A DNA stretch of 61,405 nt, the filler included, from Squatina squatina (Eukaryota), in NCBI GenBank assembly GCA_031763465.1. It is 4 parts of 4 records of this genome, joined end to end, with 100 filler letters (N's around TTAATTAATTAA, not from the genome) between each part and the next. Parts side by side here need not be neighbours in the genome. Positions count along the whole stretch, not along the records: positions 12,911 to 32,348 come from JARFOE010000013.1; 3 more parts are not named here. One strand, given 5' to 3'. Under the pieces are notes generated by a model. It was not told the origin of the DNA. It did not search any database and saw only the letters and a program-made list of their open reading frames with translations. The translations under genes and the position numbers were made by a program. Of this stretch, positions 10,621 to 46,881 are shown one piece after another (position 1 is the stretch's first letter; every line of letters begins with the position of its first letter).

Positions 10621-10799
10621 CATGGAGTAACTAATCGCTCATTAACATTACCCAATTTAAAAAAAAAATTATTTAACTTCACCACAAACAAAAATTCAAC
10701 CAAGAAACCAGGTATCTTAAATTACACTTAAATTTGTTTTACAAAACCAATTTGCTCTGCTATGGATAACTTTGCGTCAAAATGAAATGTTTGACATAC

Positions 10800-10890
10800 C
10801 TCAATTTCTTCCCCTTTGTTTGCCACTTGAATAAGTCCAGTCTCTAACAGCTCTTCAACTGTTTTTATTTTTTCATCTCGTTCTTGAAGA
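10800..10890 (-). CDS. KTN1: Kinectin exon (LQERDEKIKTVEELLETGLIQVANKGEEIE)
   Basis: 91-nt AG/GT-bounded exon matching recalled KTN1 IQEKDEKLKTVEELLETGLIQVATKEEEL. Confidence 0.92.
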
Positions 10891-10970
10891 CTGGTTAAAA
10901 AAAGACACATCAAACGCATGCAAGTGTAGCAAAATGATACTGGTTCAAACTAGATGATAAGGTGACTCAC

Positions 10971-11420: not shown

Positions 11421-11854
11421 NNNNNNNNNNNNNNNNNNNNNNNNNNNNNNNNNNNNNNNNNNNNNNNNNNNNNNNNNNNNNNNNNNNNNNNNNNNNNNNN
11501 NNNNNNNNNNNNNNNNNNNNACAATCCATGTAATAATGATTATTGAGAATCTAAATTAAGCATTTTCTGCAGCAATTTCCTGGTTCACACTGCCAAAGTA
11601 TAGAATGTTGAATATACAAAGCACCTGTCCAAAACACTTAATTGAATGTGTTTCTTACAGCTCTCCAGATTACTATTTATTTAGCAGTGAGGCTGCAAGT
11701 TCAAACCATCTCATTTTTATTCACTTGTTCCCAATTTTTATTTTGGTAATACTGAAATCCCCTCCCACAATCTGCACAGCCACTGATCAAATCCAACCAC
11801 TCATTTGCCATTTCTTAAATTTCTGTTAACATGAAATAACGGCAGTTTTTATAC

Positions 11855-11999
11855 CTTGAGATGTTGAACGGTCTGTTCATAGGAAACCTCCAGGTTCTTT
11901 TTCTGTGCCTCTTCCTGCTGAAGGCGGTTTGTTTTCTCTGTAAGTTCATTCATTAATCTGGCATAGTCCTGTCGTAGTTTGTTCAGTTCTGTTGACTGT
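11855..11999 (-). CDS. KTN1: Kinectin exon (QSTELNKLRQDYARLMNELTEKTNRLQQEEAQKKNLEVSYEQTVQHLK)
   Basis: 145-nt AG/GT-bounded exon matching recalled KTN1 QSAELNKLRQDYARLVNELTEKTGKLQQEEVQKKN. Confidence 0.92.
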
Positions 12000-12810
12000 C
12001 TGCGTTCAACATTTATAAACTAATTAATGGCTCTATAGTTTAAAGTAGCATACTATACAATTTTAAATGGTATTTTTTCCATTTGGCAGTACATTTTATT
12101 CCATAGCAGAACAGAGACATGCATCTAATCATCATACACCAGTATACTAGCAGTTACGCATTTTTCGTGTAATTCAATGTCTGAATTTTCACACGCTGTT
12201 CCAATTCTCAAACTTCCAGAAGAACAGAACAAAAATACATTAGGGACGAGACCAAGGGATAACATACACCACCAGTGACACCAAATTGAGAGTAGGGTAA
12301 GCATCACCAAGCTTGTGTAAGGAACATTTTGAAGTAACAAAAAAAATTGTATCTCCTATGTAATTGTGCCTGCTTATTTCATACTGTTTCCTTCCGTTTG
12401 TGTTTACCTTTTGGGATCAGCAACAAGCAGCTTGGTTGGCGGAGGCGGACAGGAGCCCAGGCTACCCTGGGACCAAGTCAGGTGAACATTTGGAGAATCA
12501 CTCAGGCCAATCCAGGGAAAGAGACTAGGTGGTGGGATAAATACAAAGAAACAAAGTAACTCATGCCGTTCTGGAAGAAGGCAGTGGGAGGCACCTAAGT
12601 CTGGTGTGTTCAGATGATGCAGGAGCAAATGGGAGAATTTGGTTCCACTTTTGATTTTAAAAGGAAGTGAGTAAGCAACAGCAAACGAGTGGCCACAGCA
12701 TAGAACAAGGTTGAACAAAGTACTCTGGGTGAGTGCTCGACTGGTTATTAACACTAAATTTTCACTTATAAACTAAAGCTGCAGATCAGCCTGCTAGACA
12801 GTGTGGTGCA

Positions 12811-12910
12811 NNNNNNNNNNNNNNNNNNNNNNNNNNNNNNNNNNNNNNNNNNNNTTAATTAATTAANNNNNNNNNNNNNNNNNNNNNNNNNNNNNNNNNN
12901 NNNNNNNNNN
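12811..12910. other. Artificial scaffold-joining linker
   Basis: 44 N + TTAATTAATTAA (stops in all six frames) + 44 N. Confidence 0.95.
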
Positions 12911-14031
12911 CATATTCCCTCTCACTGTGGAGATTCAATTCTTACACCCAGGTCAAACTGGGAAACTAATCCGCCCCACCTACGCTGCTCCTTCCAGTTG
13001 GGCCACTGCGCTTCCTGTCTGTCGAACCCAGCTTCCAATCCATCGCAGACCGATGGAACGAGCTCTTACTATCGTGTAGCCGACTAAACCTACTTGTAGT
13101 GATTGTGGATCCATAATCACAAGACTGTGTCCATAGCACGGCATCAAAAGGAGAGGAGGTGCAAGTGTGGCTGATGCGGAAGATAGAAATAGCGTGGAGC
13201 TGTAGTGATGCTCTTCTTGAGCTGGAGATTACGTTTGCTCGATGGAGAGGGAGCTCCACCCAATCGTTACTCTGCCCAACTCGGTGCTGACACTGGATGT
13301 CTAAAACGCCCCGTTCATTCCCAGTACTTCGCTGAGCTCGCATTCCCCTCATCTCTCCCAGCAGCATCACCTCGTTGCCACCTTCAGCAACTTGTGTTTG
13401 TGCTAATGGGGGCGAGCTGAGCGATTGAGGCGTGTCGGGCGAGAGCTGCTTGTCAGCGTGGGTGGAACCATGATTGAAAAGCTGAACTGCGAATGTGAAG
13501 TGGAGGTGGTACAATCCTGTGCCAAAGAAAGCTTATTTCGTGGAATACTTCGTGTCCCTGGGCACTCGGTCTCCCTCGTGGTCTGACTGTCTACTCCGGA
13601 TTAGGAGGGGTTCCTCCACTGACATCGGGCGGTGGGGGTTGGTGGCTGCATGCAGTCCACAGATGAGAATTGGGTTAGACCAGGCTTTGAAATGACTCTC
13701 CCAGTCCTTCGCTGCCCATGTTGGCTCCAGTCCAATCCCACGTGGTCCCCTTCTGGATTTCTCCCCAACGAAGTGTTGGAAGTGAAAGGTCCCACCAATT
13801 CCGCAGGAGAGCAGACAAAGTCCTCCCAACAGCTGCCGGTGGAAGGTTGGCTGTTGACGTTGCCAGTCAAGCCACCACTTTGAGTGGCTCGCACGCCCAC
13901 GCTTGCCGCATCTTCAGAAAATCATCAGCTTCTTCCTCAGTCGCAAATTCAGTATTGGCAAAGAGGGCAATGTCAACGCCAACAATACTGCTCCTGCTCT
14001 TGACTAGCTGCATGGCCACCGTTCCCTCTGA

Positions 14032-14316
<285 letters not shown>

Positions 14317-15069
14317 TAGTAACCATGACAACCAATAAATGACTGGGCCTTGTTACGCATCACTGAATACCAATTCTGGCTTGTTAAAGATTAAAGAAAA
14401 CATGAGGCCTGGATACATTGGAGGGGCTGTTCTAAATTTGTGGCTTGTTGGAGCAGTGTAGAGGGAACTTTANNNNNNNNNNNNNNNNNNNNNNNNNNNN
14501 NNNNNNNNNNNNNNNNNNNNNNNNNNNNNNNNNNNNNNNNNNNNNNNNNNNNNNNNNNNNNNNNNNNNNNNNGCCTACTCCTGCATCTATTTTCTTTGTT
14601 TCTATGTTTTTATGTTTGCTTCCTGCTCAGAGGGCAGATTAAAATTGAACTCAGAAGGATATCAGTGGGTAAAGCACTCAAGTTGATTTTAACTGCCTAC
14701 TGCATAGTTGCTGCTGGGCGGCAAGGGTTAAAATCAACCCCCGGAGTAACATGGACTAGCTAGTCAGCCAAGGGCCACTGGTGAAGAGGAGATCGGCTTC
14801 AAGTTTTATCATGAGTACAACTGTTTAAATATTCTCTCTTTTTTGTCCCCTCTAGGAATTAACAATGTAAACCGCAAAAAGATCTATTTCTATATATATT
14901 CGCTGGATATTATCAACATTATAAACTATAACCAAACTGTAAATCATACAAGTTTGCATCTGTTATACCACTAATAAACTCAGCCTATGGAAACCAAACC
15001 AGAGCTTGCTTGTATTTGTTTGAAATAACAAGGGGGAAGTAAGGGTGAGAGATGAGGATTGTCATGGGC

Positions 15070-15229
15070 CGAAGCCCCATTCCAGAGACTTGAGCACATA
15101 ATCTAGGCTGACACTTCAGTGAGATACTGAGGGAATGTTGCAGTGTCGGAAGTGCTGTCTTTCGGATGAAATGTTAAACTGTCTGCCCTCTCAGGTGAAC
15201 GTAGAGATCCCACGGCACTATTGGAAGAA
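15070..15229 (+). mobile_element. Deu-domain SINE (SacSINE1/AmnSINE1 superfamily) fragment
   Basis: gagcacataatctaggctgacac..tactgaggga..gtctttcggatga..gttaaac Deu-domain core. Confidence 0.7.
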
Positions 15230-16456
15230 NNNNNNNNNNNNNNNNNNNNNNNNNNNNNNNNNNNNNNNNNNNNNNNNNNNNNNNNNNNNNNNNNNNNNNN
15301 NNNNNNNNNNNNNNNNNNNNNNNNNNNNNTAATTGACCATGGAATTATTTTGGTGGTGAAGAGATACAAATGTTGACCAGAACACCAGGAGAAGCATTGG
15401 CTCTTTTATAGCCACTTTAACAGGCAGATGGGGATCTCAAATGTTTCATCTGAAAGACAGGAGACAGAAGAGGTCTGAGCAAAAGGTCAGATGAAGTAGA
15501 GAAAGAAAGTCTATGTAGTCCTCTCATCATCATGGACAACCGAGAGTACAATCTTCAATTTTCATGTGGCCCGCAAAAGATTAATGGTATTTAACTATGT
15601 CTCTCCAGTTTACACAGAGTAATGAGAAAGCTGGTTAGGTAAGATAGTCAGTCCCAAAATTGCTGGGGACGGGGCAAAAAAAGACAAAATTTGATCCAGC
15701 CTCCACTTCAGATTATTTCCAGTGCAAATCCAGATAACTCTTTTTACATTGATTTCAAAGAAGGTTAAACTCAACTTTTAGCCTCCAGACCATGGTTTAT
15801 AGTCAGTCCCATAGATGGTAAAGCATTGTTTGAAGTTTGTATTGCTTGGGGAACTTTCAACTCACATTGGAGACTGACAACGAGTTGAATACTACACTGA
15901 TGTAGAATAGTGCAGTAGCTTTGCTTGAATCTGAAGAGTGAGAAGTCAAGTTCCAGCATGCTAGTCAGCACTGGGACAAAATAAGTCACTGACCAGCTTC
16001 TTGAAGGAACAGTGCACTGAATACAAGTAACTCTTTAATCATACAGGCCAATGGCAAGGAAATTGGCAGGCAAAAGTCACTTTAGCCCAACTCAAGGTAC
16101 AAAACTGTCCAGTCTAGGATTTGTTCAACTCAAACCAAAGATCCCTTTAACAAAAGCCATCCTATTACACAGCCAAGACAATGAGTAAGAGTTAGAAAGC
16201 AGAGAGGGATAGAAAGCTGCTGAAGAAACAGACACAAAGAAATTTTACTTTTAAGAGCAAAGGAACGAGAAATTATGCACACTTAATTTATTTCTGTAAA
16301 AACAAAGCTAGGCAACTCTTACACTAGTGAGACAGGATCGTTACAGGTAAAATATTGCCCTATAAAGCAGCTATTTGGTGTTCCAACATATACTTATGGG
16401 GCAATCACATTCACCGCTCACATTTAAAGCAAAGACAACAAGGTTTTGGTAATTCA

Positions 16457-16705
<249 letters not shown>

Positions 16706-17219
16706 TTACCTTTGAGGACAAACCTAGCACACCCCTCTTGTATTGTAATACTCTGATTAAGATTATTGATAAATACCTTATCTTGTTCACTGCTCTTTTA
16801 TACTGCACCAGGTTCCAGCTCATCCGTATCACATGATGTAGGCATGGAGGAGGAGCTAAAAAATAGCTCTATTAAACACAATTAGATTTATTTTTAAACC
16901 TTGTATTTTTCATTTTAAAAAGAATCTTTTTTTTCTTTGCTCTCTGTCTTTAATATAAATAAGTATAATCTTTCCTCTAAGTCTGATGTTGGGTTTAACC
17001 TGTCAATAGCCTGGATTCCATTTGCTTGGAACATTTTGAAAGGAAGACTCGGGCTTCTACAGCTCATCACAAATACTGAATTTTTTTNNNNNNNNNNNNN
17101 NNNNNNNNNNNNNNNNNNNNNNNNNNNNNNNNNNNNNNNNNNNNNNNNNNNNNNNNNNNNNNNNNNNNNNNNNNNNNNNNNNNNNNNAGCCAAGATCCTA
17201 TTGAATGGTGGCGCAGGCT

Positions 17220-17750
17220 CGAAGGGCCGAATAGCCTACTCCTGTTTATATTTTCTTTGTTTCTGTGTAAAGTGGGGTCCAACAAGGATCAGTGCTGGGA
17301 CTACTATTGTTCACAATTTATATTAACTATTTGAGGTTAGAATCAAAAACACGATTTCTAAATTTGCGGATGACACCAAATTTGGGGTGGTGGTGGTGGT
17401 GGTTGGTAATCCAGAGGAGAACTGCAACAAATTATAAGAAGGCATTAATAAACTTGTAGAATAGACAACACAGAAGGGTGAGGTATTACATTTTGGTAGG
17501 AAAAATAAGGAAGTCACACATTACTTGAAAAATAAAGGGGCAGAGGAGCAAAGTGATCTCCAAGTACAAATCGCCATATGTAGCAAAACAGGCTCGCAAG
17601 GTCATTTTAAAAAAAAGCAAAACAAGCACTAGGGTTTATTTCCAGAAGGATAGAGTTGAAAAATAGAGAGGTTATGACAAACTTGTATCGAAACTTGGTT
17701 AGATCACACTTGGAGTACTGTGTGCAATTCTGGTTGTCATATTATAAAAA
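17220..17750 (+). mobile_element. CR1 LINE RT fragments
   Basis: [17 protein letters not shown] and LVRSHLEYCVQFW motifs with deletions. Confidence 0.85.
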
Positions 17751-18341
17751 GAATGGACGCGACTGCTGTCAACGAACTGGAAGCGATCTGCTCATGCGCA
17801 CTGCCGGTCTATCAAGGTTTGTTGTAAAAAGCCGAGAAGGGAGCGAGCTGATGAAAAAGTCAGAAAGCCGGGATGAGAACGGGCTAGTGAAAAAGCTGGA
17901 AANNNNNNNNNNNNNNNNNNNNNNNNNNNNNNNNNNNNNNNNNNNNNNNNNNNNNNNNNNNNNNNNNNNNNNNNNNNNNNNNNNNNNNNNNNNNNNNNNN
18001 NNGGACATTGGTTGATATGATTCTTTCAGTAGAGCTATGTCAGGTTGTTGCATGGATGGTATGTGGGACAGCTGTGCCAACTTTGGCACCAGCCCAAAGA
18101 TGTTAATGGGCAGGTCTTTTCAGGGTCAACTGTGCTGGGTGCGCCTTTGTCGGGTCCTGATTCAATACCTAGAACAGGGGAGGATAAATGATAGAATGGA
18201 GAAAGGGAATTATAAACAACAGAGTAGGAAAAGGGGAGGATAAGCAATAGGGAAGTGCGAGATAAATAATAGAGTAAGAAAAGAGGAGGAATGATAGAGT
18301 AGCGAAAAGGATAAACAATAATGTTTTCTTTTCTGCTCTAG

Positions 18342-18576
18342 GATGCCATAGTCAGAACAGATCCAAAAGACCACTGTGTTGGAGATGAAGCCAGGGACAG
18401 ACCAGACATTTGGATCTCCAAGTACCCAATCAAACATGGGATTGTGACCAACTGGGATGACATGGAGAAGATCTGGCAACATACCTACAATATGTTGGAA
18501 GTCGACCCAGTGGAACCTCCTGTACTTCTCACGGAGGCTCCTCTGAACCACAAAGTTAACCAGAAGAAGGTGACAC
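18342..18576 (+). CDS. Divergent actin-like second coding exon (truncated by gap)
   Basis: Acceptor ttttcttttctgctctAG; [78 protein letters not shown] aligns to actin residues ~42-120. Confidence 0.85.
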
Positions 18577-19194
18577 NNNNNNNNNNNNNNNNNNNNNNNN
18601 NNNNNNNNNNNNNNNNNNNNNNNNNNNNNNNNNNNNNNNNNNNNNNNNNNNNNNNNNNNNNNNNNNNNNNNNNNNNTCTTGGTACACAACAAAGGATCTT
18701 GCACAATACCTGAGGTAACACTTGATCAAAAGTCATTTCAGACAGTCAGCAGACAGAGCAGCAAGGAGACTTTCATCCCATCACTCCGGGCTGGGTTAAA
18801 ACTCAGGCCTATAGAGGTGAAAGGGCAGTGTGGTAACCCATGACACCACCCAATCATTAGTTGGCTGATTTATGTGAATTGTTAGATTCCTTCTATTTGC
18901 TTTTTTTTAAACTCAAGTTTCTAAACACAAATTACCTTCACAAAACCGAAAGCTGAGTGTTTGTTGGGGCAGATGGCAGCAAGTGTTTGTTTTGGTTGAC
19001 AGCCATGCACGACTGAAGCACGGTATCTATCCAAAAAAAAAACAAAGCCAGTCATCCTCGCCATCAAAGAGATATTCAAGGCCAGCGATAATAATTAACC
19101 TCACTGACCAATAGCTAACTTAGAGGTAGACAGGCTTCTGCTGGTGTGTCGCAGCAGTTTTGACTGGAGTTCTGCACAGGAGACCTCTGACGGG

Positions 19195-19374
19195 ATGAGA
19201 TCCTGGTTGACTGCCTTTGTGTGCATTGGAGCGGTTGCGGTGGGGTACGGAGGCCCAGTTCAACGGACACCGAATTCCAAGGATGCTCTGTCCGCCGCCA
19301 TTTACAAGTACAACGCGGGATCCGACCAGCTGAACCTCTTTAAGCTCATGGGAGCCCACTGCATCGCAATCAAG
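19195..19374 (+). CDS. Cathelicidin/cathelin-like precursor exon 1 (signal peptide plus start of a cystatin-fold prodomain)
   Basis: gggATGa start; MRSWLTAFVCIGAVAVGYG signal-like segment; DALSAAIYKYNAGSDQLNLFKLM resembles cathelin EAVLRAVDxxNxxSxxxNLYRLL; 180 nt ending at a phase-0 aag/gt donor. Confidence 0.62.
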
Positions 19375-20559
19375 GTATAAAGATGTCATTGAACTGCTGG
19401 AATTACGAAATTGGATTCACAGCGGGCCTCTGTATGGCTTGTTTTTATTGCCGCAGGATTGGGAGGCAGGTGTGGGTGAGCGGGGGAAGCACAGGGTAAG
19501 GCTTCCTCCTGCACCCAGCCAGAGGCAAGGTAAGCAAGGAAAANNNNNNNNNNNNNNNNNNNNNNNNNNNNNNNNNNNNNNNNNNNNNNNNNNNNNNNNN
19601 NNNNNNNNNNNNNNNNNNNNNNNNNNNNNNNNNNNNNNNNNNNCGCTAGGGAGCAATTACATTACATTTTTTAAATATTTCCTCCCCCACCTCTCCCTAA
19701 TCACAAGTTGGGTGGAGGCTGAGCCAATGGTAGGCAGCCTGCCCTCTGTACTTACTCACCCCCATCTCTGATACCTGCCCAACACACACACAGTGGACAG
19801 AGCGAGAGTTATAAGGACATCATTCTATACGATTCCATCATTTCCAGGCTCATCACTGCTGGTGGGCAAAAGGAGTGGATAAGGAGAGTAGGAATGCTGA
19901 AATGAAATATATATACATATTTATAATTGAAACTATTCCAAGGCTTTAAATAAAGCTGTAAAACTCTTCTTTTAAATAGAACTCTCAATTTATAAGACTT
20001 TAATCTACAGAACAATTTGGAGCAAAGAAAGTGCACGCTGGAGAAGTGGGTTGTAATTGACGAAATTTACGCGGTGATATTCACACACAAGTGGTGGGCT
20101 TTTTCTCCCTCACCGAAATCCTGGAACTGGATTAAGGAAAGTGCAGAAAGGCGCCTGATGTGACAGCACAGAAACCGCCAGCCAAGGATTTTAACTCGTT
20201 TCTTGCCACTGGGGGAGATCCAAGGGGGAGGAGAAAATAGTGAGTTGACGGAAGGGGGTTAATAAGCAACTGGGTTCTGTCATATGGATGTGATTTTTTT
20301 TCTGTTGCCCTCTAACCAGTATGCACAGAAAATCAAACAGCAGTAGTGACTACCCCAGACTCTGCTCCCTCCACAACTGAAGGACGAAAAGTTAGCGAGA
20401 GTTTCGATTAGTTTTTTTTTCGGTGGGTGGGAGGCGGGAGGCGAGTTGGAATGGACTCGTGGATTCGATGCGACCGAAGGTGAAGGAAGGTTTTGAAATA
20501 ACGAATTTGAAAAGTGGATGAAGAGTAAGGAATTGGGCTGACATCGCCCGGTGTCGAAC

Positions 20560-20634
20560 ATGGGAGCCGCCACCGTCTCCAGTAGCCTGGGAGTCTTGCT
20601 GTACTGCTCGGTCCTCAGCTGTGTCTACGCTCTG
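20560..20634 (+). CDS. PTH1R: PTH1 receptor signal-peptide exon (MGAATVSSSLGVLLYCSVLSCVYAL)
   Basis: 75 coding nt ending ctg/gtgagt; matches recalled [25 protein letters not shown]. Confidence 0.88.
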
Positions 20635-20748
20635 GTGAGTGTCTGTGTTCCCGTAAAGAGCAGCGCGTGTTTCAGTGACATATATACAGACCAATTTATT
20701 GGGTTATTCCGGCTCGGTGATACCACATATTTCTCATATTAGCTTCTG

Positions 20749-20753
<5 letters not shown>

Positions 20754-20779
<26 letters not shown>
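20754..20779. repeat. (TA)n microsatellite
   Basis: Run of about 12-13 TA units. Confidence 0.85.
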
Positions 20780-20782
<3 letters not shown>

Positions 20783-21844
20783 TGTGTGTATTATAAATTA
20801 ATTATATATTATAGGATCAATTTTATGAATGTTTACCTGGAGCTAGAGCAGTTCGCACTGAGGAAAGATTTAAAGGACTATGAAAAAGGAAGAAATCCAA
20901 TGGTGGTAGAGGTAAACGATACTGGGAGAAATGATATAGGGGCCCTAAAAGTTACATATGAGAATCATTTCAATTTGGAAACATGGGATTAATACTCTTA
21001 ACTGTGGAGGAATGGAAAGATCTTGCTGGAGTGCAGATAAGCCAATCTTTAAAGGTGGGAACACAGGTGGAAAGGGCTGTAAAAGAAGCATGTTGGATTC
21101 TGAGTTTGAATGTCTGAATAAGGGCATTGCTTATAAAAGNNNNNNNNNNNNNNNNNNNNNNNNNNNNNNNNNNNNNNNNNNNNNNNNNNNNNNNNNNNNN
21201 NNNNNNNNNNNNNNNNNNNNNNNNNNNNNNNNNNNNNNNGGCTGTTTGGTTGTTAAAGAGCCTGTGGTAGAGTGCTACCAATCTTCTCAAAATTCAGAAT
21301 CAGTGCCATTTATGTTGCAGGTTTAACCCTTACCTCGGTTACTTCTTTTGGCATTTCCCCATAAAGCAGCCTCACTCAATAAACATCCAGTATCCAATAA
21401 CATTTTTTGCAAGAGCCTTCAAACAGATCTGTATTTATTTATCTGAACTCCTTGCTCTGGCTCACACCCTTTTTCTGTCAATTGATGAAGAGGCCTAGTC
21501 CGGCACTAAATCAACTGTACAAAGTGTGTANNNNNNNNNNCAGCCAATACAGTGGAATCCTGTTCTATGCAGTCATCTGATAATTAATCAAAATACAATT
21601 TCATCTATCCAGAATTCCATTACTCCAGCAGAGACTGTGTGATCTAGTGTAAGGAGGGAAGCTACAAGTATTCTGTTAACACATCCCTCTGAAAATTTCA
21701 CCAGAGTATTCTCGACTCATTACTTTTATAATCCCTTTGCAATGGGCAAATTATTTTCAGTGTGGGTTAGTGCATGACTTCATTTGCATTTGTTTTCCCA
21801 CTCTTCAAATGTTCCAGAAAATTCTAACGATAACCCTGTAAAGT

Positions 21845-22072
21845 ACCCACCTTGGCTCAGTCGGTAGCACTCTTGCCTCTGAGTCAGGAGGCCATGGGTT
21901 CAAGCTCCACTCCAGAGATTTGAGCACATAATCCCGGCTCGCACACCAGTGCGGTACTGAGGGAATGCTACAATGTCAATGGTAATGTCTTTCGGATGAG
22001 ATATTAAACTGGGTCCTGTCTGCCCTCACGGCACTATTTAAAGAAGAACAGGGAAATTGCCTGTGTCCTGCT
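21845..22072 (+). mobile_element. Deu-domain SINE with tRNA-derived head
   Basis: A-box tggctcagtcggt and B-box ggttcaagctcc followed by the Deu core (gtactgaggga..gtctttcggatgag). Confidence 0.8.
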
Positions 22073-22453
22073 NNNNNNNNNNNNNNNNNNNNNNNNNNNN
22101 NNNNNNNNNNNNNNNNNNNNNNNNNNNNNNNNNNNNNNNNNNNNNNNNNNNNNNNNNNNNNNNNNNNNNNNNAGACAGAGGCTATTCAGCTCATCATGTC
22201 TGTACTGGCTCTGTGCTAAAGCCATCCCAGTGCATCACACTCTCCCCATAGTCCTCTGTCTTTCTCTGCTTCAAATAATTATCCAATTTCCCCATAAAAG
22301 ATGCAACGCATTCTGTCACCGAACAAGCTCCAACAACTCTCTGAGTAATGAAATGTTTCCAACTTTCTCTCCACAATTTCTTAATGACAATTTTAAATCC
22401 TCTGCCCCATTCTTCCCGGCTAATTTTGTGTGTTTTCTTTTTGCCGTATTCAG

Positions 22454-22559
22454 GTTGATGCAGATGATGTTATTACCAGAGATGAACAGATTTACCTGCT
22501 ACTTCATGCTAAATGGAAGTGCGAGCAGAAGTTGAAGTCCAGGATGGGTAATGCTGCTG
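22454..22559 (+). CDS. PTH1R: PTH1 receptor extracellular-domain exon (VDADDVITRDEQIYLLLHAKWKCEQKLKSRMGNAA)
   Basis: 106-nt cag/../gtgagt exon; matches recalled [28 protein letters not shown]. Confidence 0.92.
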
Positions 22560-22589
22560 GTGAGTCCCTCCTTTAATTTCGTTAGCTAC

Positions 22590-23010
22590 AACTTATATTT
22601 ATATGGCACCTTTAACATAGTAAATGTTCCAATGTAGTTCACGGGAACATAGAACACCAAAGAAGGAGACATTAGGAGGGTCTTGGCCAAAGAGGTAGGT
22701 TTTAAGGAGCATCTTAAAGGAGAGAGGTGGAGAGGTGGAGGGGCTTAGGGCCTGTATGGCTGAGGGCACGACTGCCAATAGTGGAGCAAAGGAAATTGGG
22801 AATGCACAAGGGCAGAATTAGAAGAAGGCAGAGTTCTTGGAGGGTTATGGGGCTGGAGGAGGTTACAAAGACAAGGAGCGGTGAGGCCATGGAGGGTTTT
22901 GAACACAAGGATTTTAAAAACAAAAGAATTTTAAAATGGAAGCATTCGGGGAAGGGGAACTAATGTAGGTCAGTGAGTGGATGAGCGGGACTTGGTGTGA
23001 GGTAGGATAC
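22590..23010 (-). mobile_element. L2-clade LINE 3' end
   Basis: Similar to the repeat at 50620-51095; antisense L2-like 3' region. Confidence 0.6.
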
Positions 23011-24099
23011 ATTCTGTAGCTGTGTGAAGTAGCAATGATCGCAATGACACGGGAGGATAGAGTGCCTTTTAATGTTAATAGTAAAAATGGTAATGCTACG
23101 GTGTGTTGAAAAGCATGTCGCTGATCAAAGGGACCGTGGCAAAATTAAATGGATGTGCTAAAAAATGTGGATGAATTTTAAATGTTGAAACTAAGGATCT
23201 GGCCATATTACAATATGAGATGTGTGCACAGTGACAGGAACTGTGAAACACGTGCAAATGGTGACAGGAACTGCGAAACTATGCTATAATTTGACCTTTG
23301 CACTGCTCAGTTGCTGATCAAGCAATAACCAGGGTGTTGCCGACGCAAACTGGAAGTGCACCTGCCCAGATGCCAGCTTAGCTGGGTTGTTCCCCCTGTC
23401 CGGTGAAACTCAACATCCAGAATCAAATTGAATGGTGATTTGGAGGGCCAGGGTGCAGAGCAGCAAGAATTTGGAAGAATCAATTTGGTTTGAGAACGAG
23501 CACCTTTGGCATCATCGGAGGAGTGTGGAAGAAGAGACTGAGCTGAGACAGCGAGACAAGGGCAGGCTATTGAACTCAAGTCATTAAATAATAAAATCGG
23601 CTCCAAGTTGTTTGCTTGCTGAAGGAGCTCAACCTCTCAGTGATGTTTAAAGCCTTGCTGTGAAACATTCCATAGTTTATTATTATTTATTTTTATAAGA
23701 GGCACTGAGTGATCTTTCCTCTTTGCCAGCTTTAACAAGCCATCTCAGAGCTTGTGCTGAAGGAGGGTGGGAAGGAAGGGGGATGGGCAGGTGGGATAAC
23801 CGTGGCTGCCTATTTGGCAGGATGCCAGCCTACTGCCTGCCAACCTAAGTTACAGCATCAAGTGCAAAAAAGGCTTAATTGGCAGAATGTACGACCTCAG
23901 CGGCCTCTGATGGGCACCGAGCAGTGGGAATTGAGTCTAAAAATGTGACATTTGCTTTAAAACAATTTTTAAATAAAGGCAAATTGTCGGTTGAAATGGA
24001 GGTTAAGAAAAAAGCATTTATATATATATATATATAGAACTAACAAGATATTCATTGTGCTACATACGGTCCTTGAATATATATCAATTATATGTAAAG

Positions 24100-24297
24100 A
24101 TAGAAAAATGCTGTCATTTATATAGCACCTTTCATGACTTCAGGACGTCCCCAAGCACTTTACAGCCAATGAAGCACTTTCTGAAATGCAGTCAGTGTTG
24201 TAACGTAGGAAACACGGCAGTCAGTTTGCACACAGCAAGCTCCCATAAACAGCTATGAGATACAGGATTGGATCATCTTTTTTCTAAGTGATCTTAA
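24100..24297 (-). mobile_element. Deu-domain SINE 3' part
   Basis: catttatatagcacctttcatgacttcaggacgtccc..ctttacagccaatgaag. Confidence 0.7.
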
Positions 24298-26731
24298 NNN
24301 NNNNNNNNNNNNNNNNNNNNNNNNNNNNNNNNNNNNNNNNNNNNNNNNNNNNNNNNNNNNNNNNNNNNNNNNNNNNNNNNNNNNNNNNNNNNNNNNNCTC
24401 ACTGATCCGCCTGGTTAAAATTGGGCCCATTCCGCATATTAGTTTTGATCAGCAATAGCAAGTCAGCCAGTGTAGGTAATTGGATTTTACCAGGGGCAAG
24501 TTCTGATTTAAACTTGGTTTAGGGGTTCATTGTAATGCAGCAGTGGTTGAAGAAGGATCAATATTTTTTAATGATTTAGAGTAACTTTAGCTACCGCAGG
24601 ATTCAGCAGCTCTGCTTACAAGCTTTATCTTGCAGATGCTTGGCTAGCGCAATCTGGATTGAACCAGTTACCTAATTGCATCATTATCAGAGATTCTTTT
24701 TTAAGGGAATGTCTCCAAATTACATACCCTAGCTGATGTGAAACATTGCCGCTTTGTTAAAGCGAAGGAATATTCGCATTGGATCAGTACACCTGGACCA
24801 ATCAACTGCTATTCCAGTGGGGTGTAGAATGGAGGGTCAGAATGAGAGACAGAGAGAATCATTCTAATCCCCAGAACTATCATCTAACACCTGGAATGGC
24901 ACATACTGTTCACCAATTTAGGGCAATAAATCTTTTAGAACTGCTCCATACTTCATAGATAGAAAAAAAAACTTGTCTATGATAGCTGGAACCTATGGGC
25001 ACCTGCCCAAGGGAATTGTGGGATGGCTGTTTTTAGCAGTGTGGTCAGGGGTTGTGTACTGAATTTTACTGCAAACATACCCAGCCTTGTTTCAAGTTTC
25101 CCTGCTATACAGAAGCATGCTCTGTATATCAGGCCACCACTGCCTGCTCTCATCCAAACACCTAAAATTAGCCTTTAAGAATATTTCATTCCCAAATACC
25201 ACAATATCCTTTTTTTCCTTCTCTGGGTGACACTGTGTCACTATTTTAACACAGCGCTGCTTTGCAAAAAGAAAATAAAAATCCACACATGCACGCCGCC
25301 AGGGTCCGACTGACAGCGGGATCGCAGAGACGTGGGCCTCTGAAGTAAGGCAGCCAAAAATAACTTTCTTGTTTACCAAAATCTTTGTAATTCAAGATTG
25401 TTTTTCTTCAAGTTGGGAGAATCGGGAGAATAACATTTGCAGCAAAGTTTAAATGGGCAGCGGCCTCATGCTGCTGGTGGGACTGGGACTGGGGCTTGGT
25501 TCCTGTAATATCCCTATCTTTGATTTTCTTTGCTGCTGATTTTTCACCCCTCCTCTCCTCAGTGTGCTGTCTCGTGCTGGGGTAAAGTTCCACTGGTGCC
25601 AACAGTCTTCCAATACTTCGCCCAAATAGCCTTTCACTGAGACGGAATTTTCTAATGTGCCATCAAGGTAACCACTGTCAGACTGCTCCAGCCAGCGCTA
25701 TTACATGATCATGATCAGCATGGGTCGTGACAGACTATACCACTGTTGGGCAGCACCCCAGTTGACCCTGTCCTCACCCTTCCTGCACATCTGTGCATTT
25801 CCCAGTGTGGTGGGGGTCGGGGAGGAAGGCACTGAGCAGTAATCAAGAGTAGGAACACAGACTCCAATTGTAGTATCTCAACTGCTGCCCAGCTGAGTTG
25901 AGTTATTGGGCACAGACCAGAGTAGAAACTTGGGAGCTTCCTGCATGACTTAGCAGCCCACTCGAAGGTTCATTTACTCACTGAACAAGTGGGTTTGGCT
26001 GCTGCCTCNNNNNNNNNNNNNNNNNNNNNNNNNNNNNNNNNNNNNNNNNNNNNNNNNNNNNNNNNNNNNNNNNNNNNNNNNNNNNNNNNNNNNNNNNNNN
26101 NNNNNNNNCCATGTCTCCGTGATCCCAACTATATCATACTTATTAATAACTATCTGCACATCTGTTTGCTCATGGCCCTCTCATCAAAACTACTTAGAGT
26201 TCTTAAAGTGTGTTGTATTTTTATACAGTTAATTATGTGAGGTAGGCTTGATGTTAGTATGCAAGTGTGTCCATGGTATGTATAGTTAGTACATGAGTAT
26301 GTAAGTTTCGTACATAAGTGCTATAGTGGTTCCGCAGAGCACATTCCCCCTCTTGCACATGCTATTAGCAGTTCTAGCTGTTTATATTCTCTGGACATTT
26401 CACACACACAAGGCTGCCCTGCAGAATCCTCGTTTCCTTATCGTTTTAGATTTTTATTTACTGAAGCCTTTCTCGATTCACAGCCCCAACACCTCCAGCA
26501 GACATCTGAGCGCCTGTCCAACAATTAATGTTCCACTCTCAGGCCATCCTACACCTAACGTTGCTGTCCTCATACCTCTGCATTGTCCAGAATGTGATTT
26601 AATCATACCAGAATCACAGTCCACTGTACCTACTTGCTGCTGACTATTCTACCTAGTTTACTGATCCTTACAAGCCTCATTCAATGCACTGTTCCTTTTC
26701 AGTAAACCACGCTTTATACTTTGCTCCCCAG

Positions 26732-26842
26732 AAGGGTACTGCATCCCTCAATGGGATGGCATCCTTTGCTGGCCAGAAGGACCACCAGGCAAGTTGGTGC
26801 CAATGCAGTGCCCAGATTACATATACGATATCAACCACCAAG
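26732..26842 (+). CDS. PTH1R: PTH1 receptor hormone-binding domain exon ([36 protein letters not shown])
   Basis: 111-nt phase 1-1 exon with class B GPCR C-x-P-x-WD..CWP..CPDYIYD motif; cag/ acceptor and /gtaaga donor. Confidence 0.92.
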
Positions 26843-27930
26843 GTAAGAGTGTGGCTCGTAGCATCCACTTAACATTGACTAAGAGTACAATATTTTAGAG
26901 CACAGTATTTCAAACTGGAGTCATTAGAATGCATCACAGTTCAGGATTGTTTGACCATTTTTCCACAGAAAGGACATGAAGAAAAAACAGGATTACTTTA
27001 ATTGTTGAGTTTTAAAAGTGTAGCGTAGTCTTGCAAGTTAAAAAGAAGGCTTCAGGTAGGTAGTTAAGTTGCCAATGAGCGAGCGTTGATGTTGTTTCCT
27101 TATAGACTGTAAATAATAAACAATGTGCTTCTCTCCATGACTGATTAGCTCCTCACATATACTGTGTTCTGACAATCAGTTATGAAGCAGGTAAATCTTT
27201 CAATTAATTGCCTTATCATTGGATTTATCCTGTGTTTCCCTGGAATTTTTCCTGTCTATGAAAAGTGACAGAGCATCACAACCTTATTTCACCGTCAAGN
27301 NNNNNNNNNNNNNNNNNNNNNNNNNNNNNNNNNNNNNNNNNNNNNNNNNNNNNNNNNNNNNNNNNNNNNNNNNNNNNNNNNNNNNNNNNNNNNNNNNNNA
27401 GTTTTGGACTCTGGGCACATGCACAGTGCTCAGATTGTCCAAGCACATTCTACACAGGACCTTTGCAGGTAACAGCAGGCTGGGCTCATTTTGAACCTAG
27501 GTTCCAGAGTTTAACCGATGTCACCAGCTCTAGGACCTTTCTAATCTTAGCAGCTGCCAGGCTACTTACAACCAGGTCTCCGCAAATTAACACCACTCCC
27601 CAACTAACCGTATCAAAATTTGCCCTATCCCATCATCTTTTTATCTGGGCAAGAGTTAGAATGTCACAGCATCCACTCATGTTTGATATTCAGTAGTTGT
27701 TACTATTTATATATTGACTTCTTCATGAAACTTTGACAGGAAGTGGGTGAAATTCAGAGATAAAGTTTGGGATTGAGAACAAGAACATTTAAAGAGTGGC
27801 CCTCACATATAGGAGTGTCTTGAAATGTTCACATGGGGAAAGGGTGTGTGAACTGAAGAGAAATGTGCAAGATCTCACATTGTTGACTCTGTATTTGTCA
27901 CCAACCTTTGACCCTAACAGATCATTATAA

Positions 27931-28086
<156 letters not shown>

Positions 28087-29801
28087 TAATGGGCTGCAGT
28101 TTTTTGTGGATCCAAGGAGCACTCCTACATCTCCAGGATCCACAAAAATAAAAATGTAAAATTTCCTGAACTTTTTTTTGTGAGTGGCCTTCAGTGGTCC
28201 CTTTTAATCTACAGGATTACTAAATTCCTATCGAACTGGGTTGGCGCGTGCACAGCACATGATCTGCCTGTTTTGCAATCTGGGTCCAACAACCGGCATA
28301 TGACCAGGATTTCTATGTTTAAGCATCGTATGTCTGTTTCAACTGGACGAGCTGCTCGTCCATTCATAGGCCTGCCTGAATATTCCATCAGGTGTACCTT
28401 GGGCAACAAAGGGCCGGCCAGGGTGCCCCCCTGATTTTTCAACTGCTGGCCACCTCTTTTAAAACAGGCAGCCATGAACTGAATTTTTCCTCTGCTTAGT
28501 CTTGTGTCTCTCAGTTGGTCATTGGTACAACAACGTCCCATCTGCTGCTCGCTCTTCTGAGTGACCTCCTATCGGCCTTCGTGAGACTGGCGGTAGACTG
28601 AATTGTAAAAAATGCAGAGGATGCAGGGAGGTTGTTTGGCACCTCCTGTTGGGTAAAAGAGCCTAGAGTTAAACAGTTGAGCTTTGCTGAAACGTACTGG
28701 GATAATGAATGATTCTGTTCTTTAATGTGAGAGGAGGAGGAGGAGCACATCTCACCTACTTTGTCAGTACTTGCTGGTGGAAAAAGAAATATTCGGACAA
28801 AAACAAAATGGAGAGTTGGGTTCAGTTTTTTTAAAGATGTACTAGCAGCTTCAGTTATATTGAATTTTGAGAATATCCTGCTGTTTTTAAAAAAAAAAAT
28901 TGTTTAGATCACTTCTAATTTACAAAAAATATGCATAAGAGGCGAAGAAAGTTTGGTTTGCATGGGAAAAAATGACTCCACAGCAAGTTGGAAAATTGAG
29001 CCTTTCTGTCTGTTGTCTTGATCAGCAGGAAAGTTCTTTAAACTTTTCTGTACAGGTAAGGATGTGGAATTTCTAGGTATTAGTTGCGAATGTGAATAGT
29101 CTGACATTTCTAATCTACAACTAGAAAGCGCATGTTGGAGATTGATGTTAACAGGCTTTGTATGCGTCAGACAAACTCCGATATCTGACCGAAGGATAGG
29201 AAGTATAAGAATACCTCATTTATNNNNNNNNNNNNNNNNNNNNNNNNNNNNNNNNNNNNNNNNNNNNNNNNNNNNNNNNNNNNNNNNNNNNNNNNNNNNN
29301 NNNNNNNNNNNNNNNNNNNNNNNGAAGGGCCGAATGGCCTACTCCTGCACCTATTTTCTATGTTTCTAACTGGAGTTACTGAAAAATCTGATTGGCAACC
29401 ATTCACATACAAAACCTCCTGTGCCAATGTAAATCACACCATATACTGGATTGACTGACACCAGGTTACACATATTCATCCACCAAAACAACCTGGCACC
29501 CACAGGAAATTTATAAATTACACTTACAAACAGATGTGACCGTAGTGAAGGAGTTTCTTTAGGATGTGCGGATGCAGGAGCCGACAGTCGATGGTCTTGT
29601 GTCTGAAAAGACAGATTACAGTCTGTACTTCATTGACACAGGAGACGGAAAGAAACATCTGCTCCATAATAAAGGAAAATTAAAGCCTCTGCAGATTGAC
29701 CTAATTCTACAGAAATACACAAATTTGATAAACGTAAGACTATTTTTGCTGGACTACATTTGTCCATAAATTGTACTTAAAGACAATAAATGTGTTCGCA
29801 C

Positions 29802-30057
29802 CTGTATTTTGGCAGTGTTCTACCCAGAGTTTAAAGCAGCTTTCAAGCACGTCCATCTCTGCAATCAACTTTACAGAGTCACCTGAGCATTTCTTCAGAA
29901 ATTCTTCTAGCTTTTTAATTCCGTGGTCAAAGTTCTCCTGAATCATTTTTATAATGCTTTTTGATATTAAAGTCCATTGTTCCCTTTGTTTCTGGTCTTC
30001 CTTCTCTTTCTTTTTCCTTATGTTTTCTTCAGCAATGATGTCAGCTTTCTTCTTAGG
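29802..30057 (-). CDS. DDX60: DDX60 (Ski2-like antiviral helicase) internal exon
   Basis: 256-nt open exon (ttatttcacAG/../GTgcga) encoding PKKKADIIAEENIRKK..EQW..IQENFDHGIKKLEEFLKKC..VKL..EM..LESCFKLWVEHC, colinear with recalled DDX60 KAEIIARENKKR..EQKW..LKENLHSGIKSLEDFLKSC..VKLQVEMVGLTACLKAWKEHC. Confidence 0.78.
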
Positions 30058-30310
30058 CTGTGAAATAAGTGTTCAATCCACTTTTAGTTTACTCGACTCC
30101 AAAAAGAGAACATCAACAGTCCTAAGATTTATCATCACTACAGCTAAAAGGAAGATTTCATAAGTCGACTGCATCAGTGAATTGCCACTGGGAAAATTAG
30201 GTTCTTGCAGTGCGCACTGCACCAGGCTTGCTCCCCGATTCAGGCACGAGCCAAATTCTAGGCTGTGTATTTTGCCACATTTGATTGTATTTCGTTGCTC
30301 TTTTCTTCAG

Positions 30311-30679
30311 GTCCAGGGTGAGATCAAAAAGGCATGGGCACGTTGGACATTAGCACTTGACTTCAAACGCAAAGCCCGGAGCGGGAGTACCACCTACAGC
30401 TACGGGCCGATGGTGTCACACACCAACAACAGCATCAGTACCAACCTGACCACCCGAGCCCCACAGGCACTCCACCTCAATAGCCGACTGGGCAGCGGGC
30501 TGCTGAACGGGCATCGGAACCTGCCGGGCTATGTCAAGAACGGATCGGTGTCCGAGAACTCGCACCCCTCCCCTCCTGAGCAGCATGGCAAGGACGACGA
30601 ACATGGCAGGAGTTTGGGATCTCCAGGGTCCTACAAGCCTTCGTTGGTTATCGAGGAAGAGAGGGAAACTGTAATGTGA
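30311..30679 (+). CDS. PTH1R: PTH1 receptor last coding exon (cytoplasmic tail)
   Basis: VQGEIKKAWARWTLALDFKRKARSGSTTYSYGPMVSHT...EEERETVM*; strong acceptor; C-terminal ETVM PDZ ligand. Confidence 0.95.
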   Translation, partial: VQGEIKKAWARWTLALDFKRKARSGSTTYSYGPMVSHTNNSISTNLTTRAPQALHLNSRLGSGLLNGHRNLPGYVKNGSVSENSHPSPPEQHGKDDEHGRSLGSPGSYKPSLVIEEERETVM

Positions 30680-32089
30680 CTGGTAGATACTTGCACAAGA
30701 TACATCCAGCTCCACACACAACTACACTCCTCAACTATAAGACAATAGCAATGGATTGAATTTATTCTCCACTTGTTTCACTACACTGGCAAGAGCAGGC
30801 TACTCCAACTGGAAAAGACCCAATTAAATGTGGAAAGAGAATCAGGAAGACATGACACACCCAGCTGCATCATGTTATCCTTTTTCCCTCTTAAGGATTG
30901 CCTGCATCTTTTGGGTAATTATTTAGATTTTAGTCGAGCACTGTTCCTNNNNNNNNNNNNNNNNNNNNNNNNNNNNNNNNNNNNNNNNNNNNNNNNNNNN
31001 NNNNNNNNNNNNNNNNNNNNNNNNNNNNNNNNNNNNNNNNNNNNNNNNATACCCAAGTTAGAGTCCGGGGCGATAACGGGGCTCTGCGCATGGTGATGAT
31101 GTCATCACCGGCGCAGCGGAGCGGAGGCACTATGGGTTACCACCGCTTGAGGGCGCTAACGGGAGATGCAAACAACTTGAATTTCTGGGCCATTAAGTCT
31201 GTGTCTCTCACCACAGATGCTGCCTGACCTGCTGAGTATTTCCAGAATTTTCTGTTTTTATTTATTTATTCGCGTTCGCTCAGCTCCTGCAGTGAGTCCG
31301 ACTATTGAATGGAAAGGTCACTTGGTGCAATAAATAGCGGATTCCTTGAGGTACAGGGAACGGTGATGTTTTGTGTCCACAGTGCATAAGCGATAACCTG
31401 TTATAGCACCTTTAAAAACAAGCTGCACTCAGCCCGTGGGCTGATTGAGAGGCTGGATTACTGCCTCTTCACACCAGCTCTGAAGTCCCCACTTCAGCTC
31501 AGGAATTGAGGACTGAATGTAGCATTCTTGCTAAATATTTGTTGCAAATCAGGCGTTTACAGCATGCAATCGTCAAAATCTTTGACAAATACATTCCACT
31601 TAAGAAACAAATCCAATGATAGCCCTTCATATAAAGCTGGAGAACCAGGAGACAGAAAGGTAGGAGAGGCAGTGATTTTTGTTCCATCCCTGTCGGCAGA
31701 GGGATTAAAATGAAAGGCCAGAAGTTGGCCCAGCGAGTAGTGATCTTGAATTCAGACAGGCGCCATTTCATCCTCCTCCTGAAGGACAGGTAGAGAGTGG
31801 ACAGATCTGTGCTGGAGCTGACCAGAGACAGTTTGCAGAGGGATAGTGTCAGAAGAGTCTAGGATTCAGGAAAAGGAGAGAGAGAGGGAGAGAAAAGAAA
31901 GAGCAGATCAGGACAAGGCAAGCAAAACAATACGCTTTTGTTTCTAGTGATATATTTTTCTCCAATGTTTCTCTCATGTTCTGAAGCTGAAGTACAGATC
32001 CACAGGGACTGTCAGCCCTCTGTTACCTCATCCACCTGGCTATTTGACTGTGGTGGGCATTGTAACTGGACCAGATCGTGTCCTTTCGA

Positions 32090-32348
32090 GATCCTCCACA
32101 CACACACATGCTCACATGCATACATTCGGTGGCACACATGCCCATACACATATGCACACACACATGCTTGTGCACGTGTTCAGACAAACATGCACATATG
32201 GATGCACATACACACACACACACATCCGTGCATACGGACACGCCTGCAGATGCAGACACAGGCGTGTACACATGCCTGCACATAGGCATATATAACCATG
32301 CATTTGCACATGTGCGCACACTTGTGCGCAGAAGCACAGGCGTGTGAA
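32090..32348. repeat. CA/TG-rich low-complexity repeat
   Basis: Degenerate cacacacatg/catgca iterations. Confidence 0.85.
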
Positions 32349-32448
32349 NNNNNNNNNNNNNNNNNNNNNNNNNNNNNNNNNNNNNNNNNNNNTTAATTAA
32401 TTAANNNNNNNNNNNNNNNNNNNNNNNNNNNNNNNNNNNNNNNNNNNN
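32349..32448. other. Artificial scaffold-joining linker
   Basis: 44 N + TTAATTAATTAA + 44 N. Confidence 0.95.
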
Positions 32449-41730: not shown

Positions 41731-43749
41731 CCTGTATTTTAGGAAGCAATCTTAACAAGGGGCAACAAGAAAGGAGGTGGGCCACAGTTAAGATTTGTGA
41801 AGGACAAAATTAAGATTTGTATTGTGCAAAATTTACTTCTACCAGCAGATGGTAAAGTAGATGAACTGCTCCACCTGATGAGCATGGAGGAGAGAACATC
41901 CACCCAGTTCAATAAAACTCTTTTTATATTGCACGTCATTCACATTATAGAGCATGCAAGATCCCGTGTACTGTGTTCATTTTCCCCTTTTATCTGCATT
42001 CAATAAAGTTTCATAGGCAGACATTCAGTGCAAAGTATTATGATGTTTTTTAAGCAAAGCAAAACCTCCTCATGTGCTGTGGACTGAAATCGCGTCTGAT
42101 TCTGTTTCCAGGTCTTCTGATGACACTGATTCTGTGGTGGATGAACTTGAAGAGGAGCTGGAGGAACAAGGCAATTGGGGAAGAGTTGAATGCCTGTGTT
42201 GATTATGAGAACATGGTGAAACGTTTACTGGTATTTGCTCACATTCGTGATCCACTTGGCAACTTTTATGTTTATGCTTTCCTGTTTATGAAAGACACAG
42301 AGAAAAACATTAATCACAGGGGCCAAAAGTTACTTTCTCATTACCTCTGTTACTCCCTGCCCCTGCCACCCCAACCAACATTCTAAACATACAGATCTTG
42401 CGACAGAAGGTCTGGGAGTATGTGCAACTTCTCGCTATAATCCTTCAATTCCTTCTCTCTACAAATTGATCAATTTGCTTTACAAACCTATTTATAATTG
42501 TCTGAATCCATTTCACTGGTAACATATTCCACAATTCTTTTATCTTTTGTGCAAAAGTAAACATTCTGCCTGATTTGCCTTTTCACTCCTACCTTAAAAG
42601 TTTGTAACTGCCAGTGCCTGTTCACCATTGCAAAGACTTGAACTTGCTTCAAACAGCACCTTCAAAATGTTGAAACCTTCAGTTAGGTTTCTTGCAACTT
42701 CCTTCTTTTCCAAAGAAAATAAGCCCAACTTTATCTTTCATCAAAACAAATTCCTGGTACCTGAGATCACCGTTGTCACTCGCCATTGAATGCTCTTGAT
42801 GGCAATAATATCCTTCCTATATACAGAGATCAGAACCTCACACATTACCCCAAGATGGGGACTGACCAGTACCTTAGGTAGGAATGAAAGTTCGCATTAC
42901 CCGAATACCTCACTGTTCACTCTGCACAGACTGTGAGATCAACACATGCTGGGTTCAAAGTTCAAACAGCTTTCTGATGAGCATTGGGTAAGAGATCAAA
43001 GCAGACAATGTCTTCACAAGAAAGATACTAGAAGGTCATGAGAGTCANNNNNNNNNNNNNNNNNNNNNNNNNNNNNNNNNNNNNNNNNNNNNNNNNNNNN
43101 NNNNNNNNNNNNNNNNNNNNNNNNNNNNNNNNNNNNNNNNNNNNNNNTCATATTGAATGGCGGTGCAGGCTCGAAGGGCTGAATGGCCTACTCCTGCTCC
43201 TATTTTCTATGTTTCTATGTTTCTCTGTCACAGTTCATATTGCATGTGTAATTAGAGCTGACCTCTGGTGGGGACAGCCATTCCTGTTTCAAGTGAATGC
43301 GCTAGTCCGGCAGCCCAGGAATCCACAAGGGAAACAATCTCTTCAAAGCCCAACACCCTGTGACTGATGGGAGTTACCCTTCCCGCCTTCTGTCTGTTGT
43401 ATTTTAACACTGTTGAGGACCACCAATTTAGTTCCCATTGGCCAGAAGAGAGAGGCCGGTTGCCTGAGCTTAGCAATCAGAGCTACTGTAATACACAATA
43501 CAAAGCATCTCCATGCATCACTAGATCTTCTGTTTTAACAATTCTGGACCTCAATAAAGGATAGATCTTGTGCATGTTGAAGCTGAGATTTCTGTTAGTT
43601 CATTTCAAAACCTAACCTTCATGAGATATCAAGAGGATCTTAGACTGTTGCTTGGAATCATATCAGCCAATCAAAATCCTACAAAAATCCTTATTAGCAG
43701 CAACCCAATCTATAAATGTTCTGAAATCAAGTATAAACCACATTTTTAC

Positions 43750-46781: not shown

Positions 46782-46881
46782 NNNNNNNNNNNNNNNNNNN
46801 NNNNNNNNNNNNNNNNNNNNNNNNNTTAATTAATTAANNNNNNNNNNNNNNNNNNNNNNNNNNNNNNNNNNNNNNNNNNNN
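46782..46881. other. Artificial scaffold-joining linker
   Basis: 44 N + TTAATTAATTAA + 44 N. Confidence 0.95.

Follow-up and report, generated by a model that had tools for sequence, protein, structure and literature searches.

Cathelin domain gene at the Squatina squatina locus

A 60-codon open frame in the window (the whole stretch of 61,405 nucleotides of Squatina squatina DNA that was analysed) was proposed by the first-pass annotation to be exon 1 of a cathelicidin, i.e., of an antimicrobial-peptide precursor gene whose mature-peptide exon had been lost in an assembly gap. The locus raises the question of whether the gene to which this exon belongs encodes such a peptide at all. The first half of the proposal stands, since the exon encodes part of a cathelin domain; the peptide precursor is not supported, since 26 of the 27 orthologous proteins carry no tail.

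The exon and its splicing

Positions 19195–19374 on the plus strand hold a stop-free, ATG-started frame of 60 codons that ends at a phase-0 donor, and the clean first exon with a signal-like N-terminus described earlier can be read directly in the translation, along with both residue motifs quoted for it. The exon is confirmed as real, rather than a chance open frame, because seven shark and ray proteins match all 60 residues and tblastn of relatives against the window finds a single locus (E 7e-35; the next best among the matches listed is 0.31, for the Pristiophorus protein P0003). These seven, all from sharks or rays and auto-named cathelicidin-related, were the matches among 66 candidates in a protein search of longer sequences, with E-values of 1e-28 to 1e-14 and identities of 63–93% over the exon. 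Residues 1–19 are hydrophobic and form the least conserved N-terminal segment, with a mean identity of 65% versus 78% for residues 20–60. The features of the locus and its surroundings are collected in Table 1.

Table 1. Features at and around the cathelin-domain exon, in positions of the whole window
Feature	Position	Strand	Basis
NAC-domain exon (NACA or NACAD)	14158..14304	+	Pfam NAC E 8e-19
Actin-like piece	16457-16606	-	Pfam Actin E 4e-12; close to standard actin start
Actin-like piece, diverged, perhaps a pseudogene or actin-like paralog	18342-18575	+	Pfam Actin E 8e-14
Coding exon 1, cathelin-domain gene	19195..19374	+	ATG-to-donor open frame; 56/60 residues identical to Pristiophorus protein P0003
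Predicted signal peptide, about residues 1–19	19195..19251	+	Kyte-Doolittle 9-residue hydropathy peak 2.8
Cathelin domain, first part (helix, loop, strand; residues 28–60)	19276..19374	+	Family-profile alignment to hCAP18/protegrin-3
Cys56 codon, fifth Cys of the mature protein, partner not evident	19360..19362	+	Invariant in 19/19 species
Phase-0 splice donor GTATAA	19375..19380	+	Sequence; a relative's contig departs here and continues in frame as exon 2
100-N gap, true size unknown; inferred place of exons 2–4 and 3' UTR	19544..19643		No exon 2–4 match in the window; remainder of the run X1 contig unplaced
Likely PTH1R-type first coding exon (signal peptide)	20560..20634	+	ATG, 25 hydrophobic codons, GTGAGT donor; assigned by position
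PTH1R-type exon, ectodomain start	22454..22558	+	PDB sequence search: PTH1R E 7e-5, PTH2R E 0.18
PTH1R-type exon, hormone-receptor domain	26734..26841	+	PTH1R E 1.5e-13, PTH2R E 8.5e-12; Pfam HRM E 1e-11

Use of the donor was traced in one public run of a relative (run X1; a small share of a single study, its RNA nature being guessed). A 625-letter contig from this run matches 19223–19375 with 13 differences in 153 positions and departs exactly at the donor, and its next 30 letters, read by hand, translate in frame to the residues that open exon 2 in the Heptranchias protein. The donor at 19375 is thus used as a splice site in a relative, a result that concerns the relative and not Squatina itself. 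The remaining 472 letters of the contig find no place on 18677–26008. Over that interval, coverage by the run is confined to this exon and to repeats; the flanking single-copy sequence and exon 1 of PTH1R are uncovered, a pattern from which no inference on expression is drawn.

The exon 1 donor was read in the sequence; the other two boundaries come from isoform differences, which would give 108 and 81 bp. Since the isoforms of Hemitrygon diverge after residue 96, exon 2 would comprise 36 codons, or 108 bp, the size of exon 2 in seven of the eight musk-deer cathelicidin genes in Table 2 of PMC6719980. Six sharks have X1/X2 isoform pairs in which one member has an extra Gln immediately ahead of the final residue, for which a last exon of 1–2 codons with a tandem acceptor would be the simplest cause, judging from the protein models. 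We infer a gene of four exons, of 180, 108, and 81 bp followed by a last exon of 1–2 codons. Neither tblastn nor motif scans found a match to exons 2–4 anywhere in the window; the C-terminus of the Squatina protein is therefore taken from its relatives, and the exons themselves probably lie in the gap at 19544–19643.

Orthologs and family identity

The ortholog set comprises 27 proteins from 19 species of sharks and batoids and was drawn from the protein search, cluster look-ups, and a profile search. Across the 19 species, exon 1 agrees with the full-length elasmobranch models at 36–56 of its 60 residues (60–93%), the closest being Pristiophorus (56/60) followed by Heptranchias (54/60), and 47 of 125 columns are invariant in the family. 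In a tree built from the window exon and a single protein for each species, sharks and batoids separate, and the skates, the catsharks, and the carpet sharks are recovered, which is the pattern expected of a single-copy gene with one member per species.

The family scores as cathelin. Pfam Cathelicidins is reached at 38–47.5 bits (cut-off 21) and outscores Pfam Cystatin in all seven full-length orthologs, although Cystatin is also above its cut-off in each of the seven scored, and both families match the proteins of all 19 species. The family profile aligns without gaps to the cathelin domains of hCAP18 and protegrin-3 over columns 28/29–108 (about 80 columns; E 1e-6 to 3e-6), whereas its alignment to cystatin F is gapped (E 3e-4) and those to other cystatins are gapped and no better. 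Pfam Spp-24 (PF07448) gives a weak match below the cut-off in two of the 19 species (best E 0.024). Since Pfam prefers cathelin over cystatin and Spp-24 and the profile prefers it over cystatin, the rival best matches named by the first-pass annotation (SPP2, fetuin, kininogen, or cystatin) did not prevail, even though the ESM Atlas is marginally cystatin-first. Its top clusters are "probable cystatin-16" (0.92) and "zgc:194981" (0.91), with a cathelicidin cluster just behind (0.90); the leading clusters hold proteins of 123–130 residues and carry Cystatin on 78–88% of their members and Cathelicidins on 16%. Atlas scores come with no alignment and serve here as leads only. SPP2, fetuin, and kininogen were rejected as identities, the orthologs scoring best as cathelin.

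Searches with the 60 residues alone are less informative than those with the full-length proteins: Pfam returns a Cystatin match below threshold (E 0.21) and none to Cathelicidins, and a PDB sequence search gives no match. An exhaustive search with the same piece produced five matches, namely two orthologs and three long bacterial Ig-repeat proteins, the latter rejected as chance matches. Two word-limited profile searches, each scoring 7992 candidates, returned the same 11 clusters, among which there were no tail-bearing paralogs and no chimaera or bony-fish relatives. Because these searches did not return even the mammalian cathelicidins, the result does not amount to an absence of paralogs. 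NGP sequences were likewise not returned by the sequence searches.

Cysteines and the missing peptide

The four cathelin cysteines are present in 26 of the 27 proteins at spacings of 10, 10, and 19. The first two spacings are those of hCAP18 and protegrin, whereas the last pair is C-x19-C in place of the C-x16-C of the cathelin motif as given in PMC12006171. The PROSITE pattern PS00947, in the form quoted in that paper, is matched in full by none of the 27 proteins and in its core by four; a relaxed form of our own making matches all 27. The extra Cys that had been noticed near the end of exon 1 (AHCIAIK) proves to be a family trait: every one of the 19 species has Cys56, within a conserved C-I-A-x-K, and the aligned residue of hCAP18 and protegrin-3 is not Cys. 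As Cys56 and the four cathelin cysteines make five in the mature chain, one would be left unpaired. An N-glycan site may be present at position 95 in 14 of the 19 species. Two structure models are of low confidence (mean pLDDT 51.5 and 47.3) and too poor to place Cys56, though their helix-then-strands order would fit the cystatin fold, a helix on a five-stranded sheet; with these models, Foldseek found no match at E 0.001, and a wide search gave generic folds only (best Z 5.8).

Beyond the fourth cathelin cysteine (Cys121), 26 of the 27 proteins from the 19 species continue for 1–4 residues and stop, as read from the protein sequences of automatic gene models. The tails of these 26 have a charge of 0 to −2 and contain no Lys or Arg; in the closest ortholog, which shares 93% of its exon 1 residues with the window, the chain stops four residues past the last Cys. 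The 27th protein, isoform X1 of Hemitrygon akajei (P0018), skips exon 3 in favor of a 33-residue tail of unrelated sequence and lacks two of the cathelin cysteines, and isoform X2 of the same species is the normal tail-less form. Within the mature region, no 15-residue window exceeds +4 in any of the 19 species; mature teleost cathelicidin peptides are given as 47–69 residues with charges of +8 to +17 in PMC4690011. Neither a cationic mature peptide nor its cleavage site, as encoded by exon 4 of cathelicidins, is found in these 26 orthologs. The tail-less orthologs, the predicted last exon of 1–2 codons, and the low charge of the mature region argue that the peptide is very likely absent by design, and the earlier explanation, a mature-peptide exon lost in an assembly gap, is not supported by the same 26 proteins.

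Genomic neighborhood

The exon lies on the second scaffold of the window (12911–32348, 19.4 kb), a chain of short contigs with mostly 100-N gaps between them, so the gene order across the gaps is that of the assembler. The spacers at 12811–12910, 32349–32448, and 46782–46881 (N44-TTAATTAATTAA-N44) are artificial and join four unrelated scaffolds, so the order of the scaffolds says nothing about synteny. Within the second scaffold, the PTH1R neighbor named by the first-pass annotation is borne out by PTH1R-type exons downstream on the same strand; the putative first coding exon alone gave no Pfam match. Its NACAD-like upstream neighbor is borne out in part: a NAC-domain exon is present and could belong to NACA or NACAD, but two actin-like pieces on opposite strands, absent from that annotation, sit between it and the cathelin exon. 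In birds, KLHL18 and TBRG4 border the cathelicidin clusters (PMC4571063), and cluster C of monotremes has a PTH1R flank (PMC12006171). The neighborhood would fit a cathelicidin locus, with the PTH1R-type exons on the same strand and scaffold, across the gap.

Other features of the window were recorded in passing. A PTH1R-like transmembrane exon at 28010–28090 (+) meets a TAA soon after its conserved stretch and has no obvious GT donor by eye; this could reflect a misjoin or an atypical junction. On another scaffold, 49914–50411 (−) is an intact-looking antigen-receptor V segment with a leader exon, a V exon (Pfam V-set E 1e-14), and a CACAGTG heptamer followed by a 23-base spacer and a nonamer-like motif; to our eye, it resembles a TCR alpha/delta V segment. 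The coiled-coil exons at 10731–10949 (−) and 11852–12019 (−) on the first scaffold are presumably from kinectin, and the open frame at 43730–44008 (−) on the third scaffold resembles the PH-domain exon found in genes of the ARHGEF4/ARHGEF9/SPATA13 type.

Relation to known protein families

Family definitions were taken from PMC10968335 and PMC13188829. With the cathelicidin precursors (PF00666; hCAP18/LL-37, protegrin-3, and those of teleosts and hagfish), the shark protein shares the predicted signal peptide, the cathelin domain with C-x10-C-x10-C, the probable 108-bp exon 2, the 80 ungapped columns, and the apparent PTH1R neighbor known from monotremes. It differs from them in having neither a cationic peptide nor a processing site, in the C-x19-C pair, and in the invariant fifth Cys. 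The shark and ray proteins measure 122–128 residues, whereas teleost cathelicidins are listed at 159–222 (PMC4690011). Mammalian NGP is described in PMC12006171 as a cathelin-domain protein that stays uncleaved and is thought to be immunomodulatory rather than antimicrobial; the shark protein may be likened to it by analogy, although NGP retains, at its C-terminus, a negatively charged extension that the shark protein lacks.

Type-2 cystatins (PF00031; cystatin F, chicken cystatin, and cystatin C) have in common with the family a single secreted domain ending just past the last Cys, the hairpin Gly, and the Pfam match; the shark family differs in lacking QxVxG and PW and in the weaker, gapped alignment (E 3e-4 or worse). 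SPP2/Spp24 shares a secreted cystatin-fold domain with four cysteines. This family is reported as expanded in cartilaginous fish, with the PF07448 domain followed by a serine-rich, SxE, or arginine-rich tail (PMC13188829). No tail of that type is present in the orthologs, and the Spp-24 matches are confined to the two weak ones given above.

The first-pass annotation did not know a chondrichthyan cathelicidin to be well characterized. The mere presence of one is not new: the gene is auto-annotated in RefSeq, and Table 2 of the 2009 paper PMC2784779 already lists cathelicidin for Chondrichthyes. The RefSeq elasmobranch models (among them XP_067831302.1 of Heptranchias, XP_038664819.1 of Scyliorhinus canicula, and XP_051879655.1 of Pristis) are the same gene, one per species, and show no structural difference, but their names, such as "cathelicidin-related peptide Oh-Cath-like", imply a peptide that is absent from the proteins. 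In the sections available, shark cathelicidins go unmentioned in a review of immunity in cartilaginous fish (PMC6795676), and a review of fish antimicrobial peptides has no shark entry (PMC3978493); the word "cathelicidin" is absent from the supplements of PMC13188829 and the main text of PMC13701976. The literature search found no description of a peptide-less elasmobranch cathelicidin, which a 2024 cathelicidin review may nevertheless cover. The presence of the gene is thus already known, and the twist, which appears solid across the protein models, is the lack of a peptide together with the invariant odd Cys.

Proposed protein and competing readings

We consider it probable, with some reserve, that this is a conserved shark and ray gene for a secreted cathelin-only protein that carries no antimicrobial peptide and acts whole as an immune-modulating protein. 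Direct support extends to the exon, to its splicing in a contig of a relative, and to orthologs that are short and tail-less. The signal peptide would be cleaved near residue 19, leaving a mature product of about 105 residues (about 11.5 kDa) that would consist of the cathelin (cystatin-fold) domain alone and be secreted intact, with two predicted cathelin disulfides, 79–90 and 101–121. The free thiol of Cys56 could, as a guess, serve a disulfide-linked dimer or a bond to a partner. By analogy with NGP, the protein might tune leukocyte or protease activity rather than kill microbes, which is the least certain step. The literature search found no tissue-expression or functional data on the shark protein; catshark transcriptomes and the nurse-shark plasma proteome may hold expression data.

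A rather doubtful variant of this proposal is that the protein survives as an intermediate form linking cystatins to cathelicidins, with a cathelin domain encoded where cathelicidin genes lie, a fourth exon that never gained a peptide, a hairpin and a C-terminal spacing of cystatin type, and a free Cys that would link dimers. The evolutionary history of cathelicidins is called unknown in a 2025 paper (PMC12006171). Since hagfish cathelicidins already carry peptides (PMC3978493), peptide loss or paralogy would be at least as simple as an ancestral state.

It is unlikely that the protein works instead as a type-2-cystatin-like inhibitor or modulator of cysteine proteases through a hairpin loop that has retained the length and the glycine of its cystatin counterpart. 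Such a role would suit the Pfam Cystatin matches in all 19 species, the invariant Gly65, which aligns with the cystatin hairpin Gly, the Gln at position 61 in nine of the 19, and a C-terminus 1–4 residues past the C-x19-C pair. Cystatin C likewise ends just past its C-x19-C pair. The position aligned to the post-helix Asn of chicken cystatin, which we take to be the legumain site, is Asn in none of the 19 species. Mammalian cathelin domains are reported in PMC6403130 to inhibit or activate cathepsin L, but QxVxG and PW, the inhibitory segments according to PMC2784779, both occur in none of the 27 orthologs.

Because the ESM Atlas puts short cystatin-domain clusters first, the protein may be one of a separate subfamily of short cystatin/cathelin proteins that bony vertebrates have as well, possibly with a non-immune role, and not an ortholog of the peptide-bearing cathelicidins. 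The zgc:194981 and probable cystatin-16 leads and the C-x19-C spacing point in this direction, as does the precedent of marsupial genes once taken for cathelicidins that turned out to be NGP (PMC12006171). We nevertheless hold it to be quite unlikely, since the Atlas scores (0.85–0.92) come without alignment, the profile and Pfam prefer cathelin over cystatin, and the probable 108-bp exon 2 and apparent PTH1R neighbor would fit cathelicidin loci.

It is very improbable that the gene encodes a true precursor of the cathelicidin type, with an exon for a cationic peptide in the assembly gap or in an unannotated splice form: the cathelin domain, exon layout, and locus fit, exon 4 of Squatina is unseen in the window, and the ray isoform P0018 demonstrates alternative 3' splicing, but the orthologs are tail-less in 26 of 27 cases, the closest included, and the tail of P0018 substitutes for exon 3 and drops two cysteines. 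That the Squatina copy is decaying or a pseudogene is likewise very improbable, for although three residues are private to it among the 19 species compared, two of them at otherwise invariant columns (L8F and T27N), and exons 2–4 are unseen in the window, its ATG, frame, and donor are intact, it shares 56 of 60 residues with P0003, and at least five codons differ silently and at least four change a residue against the run X1 contig (10 of the 13 differences listed).

Implications

The finding concerns a one-gene variant of a known family, and the activity proposed for the cathelin-only protein is by analogy. For users of elasmobranch genomes, an entry named "Oh-Cath-like", "batroxicidin-like", or "CRAMP-like" in RefSeq is no sign of an antimicrobial peptide, and peptide mining of such entries would fail because the named proteins carry no peptide. 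Reports on the activity of the cathelin domain itself conflict, as summarized in PMC6403130, and a single-copy cathelin-only protein across sharks and rays would be a natural test case for the function of that domain. Should the intermediate between cystatins and cathelicidins be the true reading, elasmobranchs would be without any cathelicidin-derived antibiotic, and the protein would show the job that the cathelin domain performed before it became a carrier.
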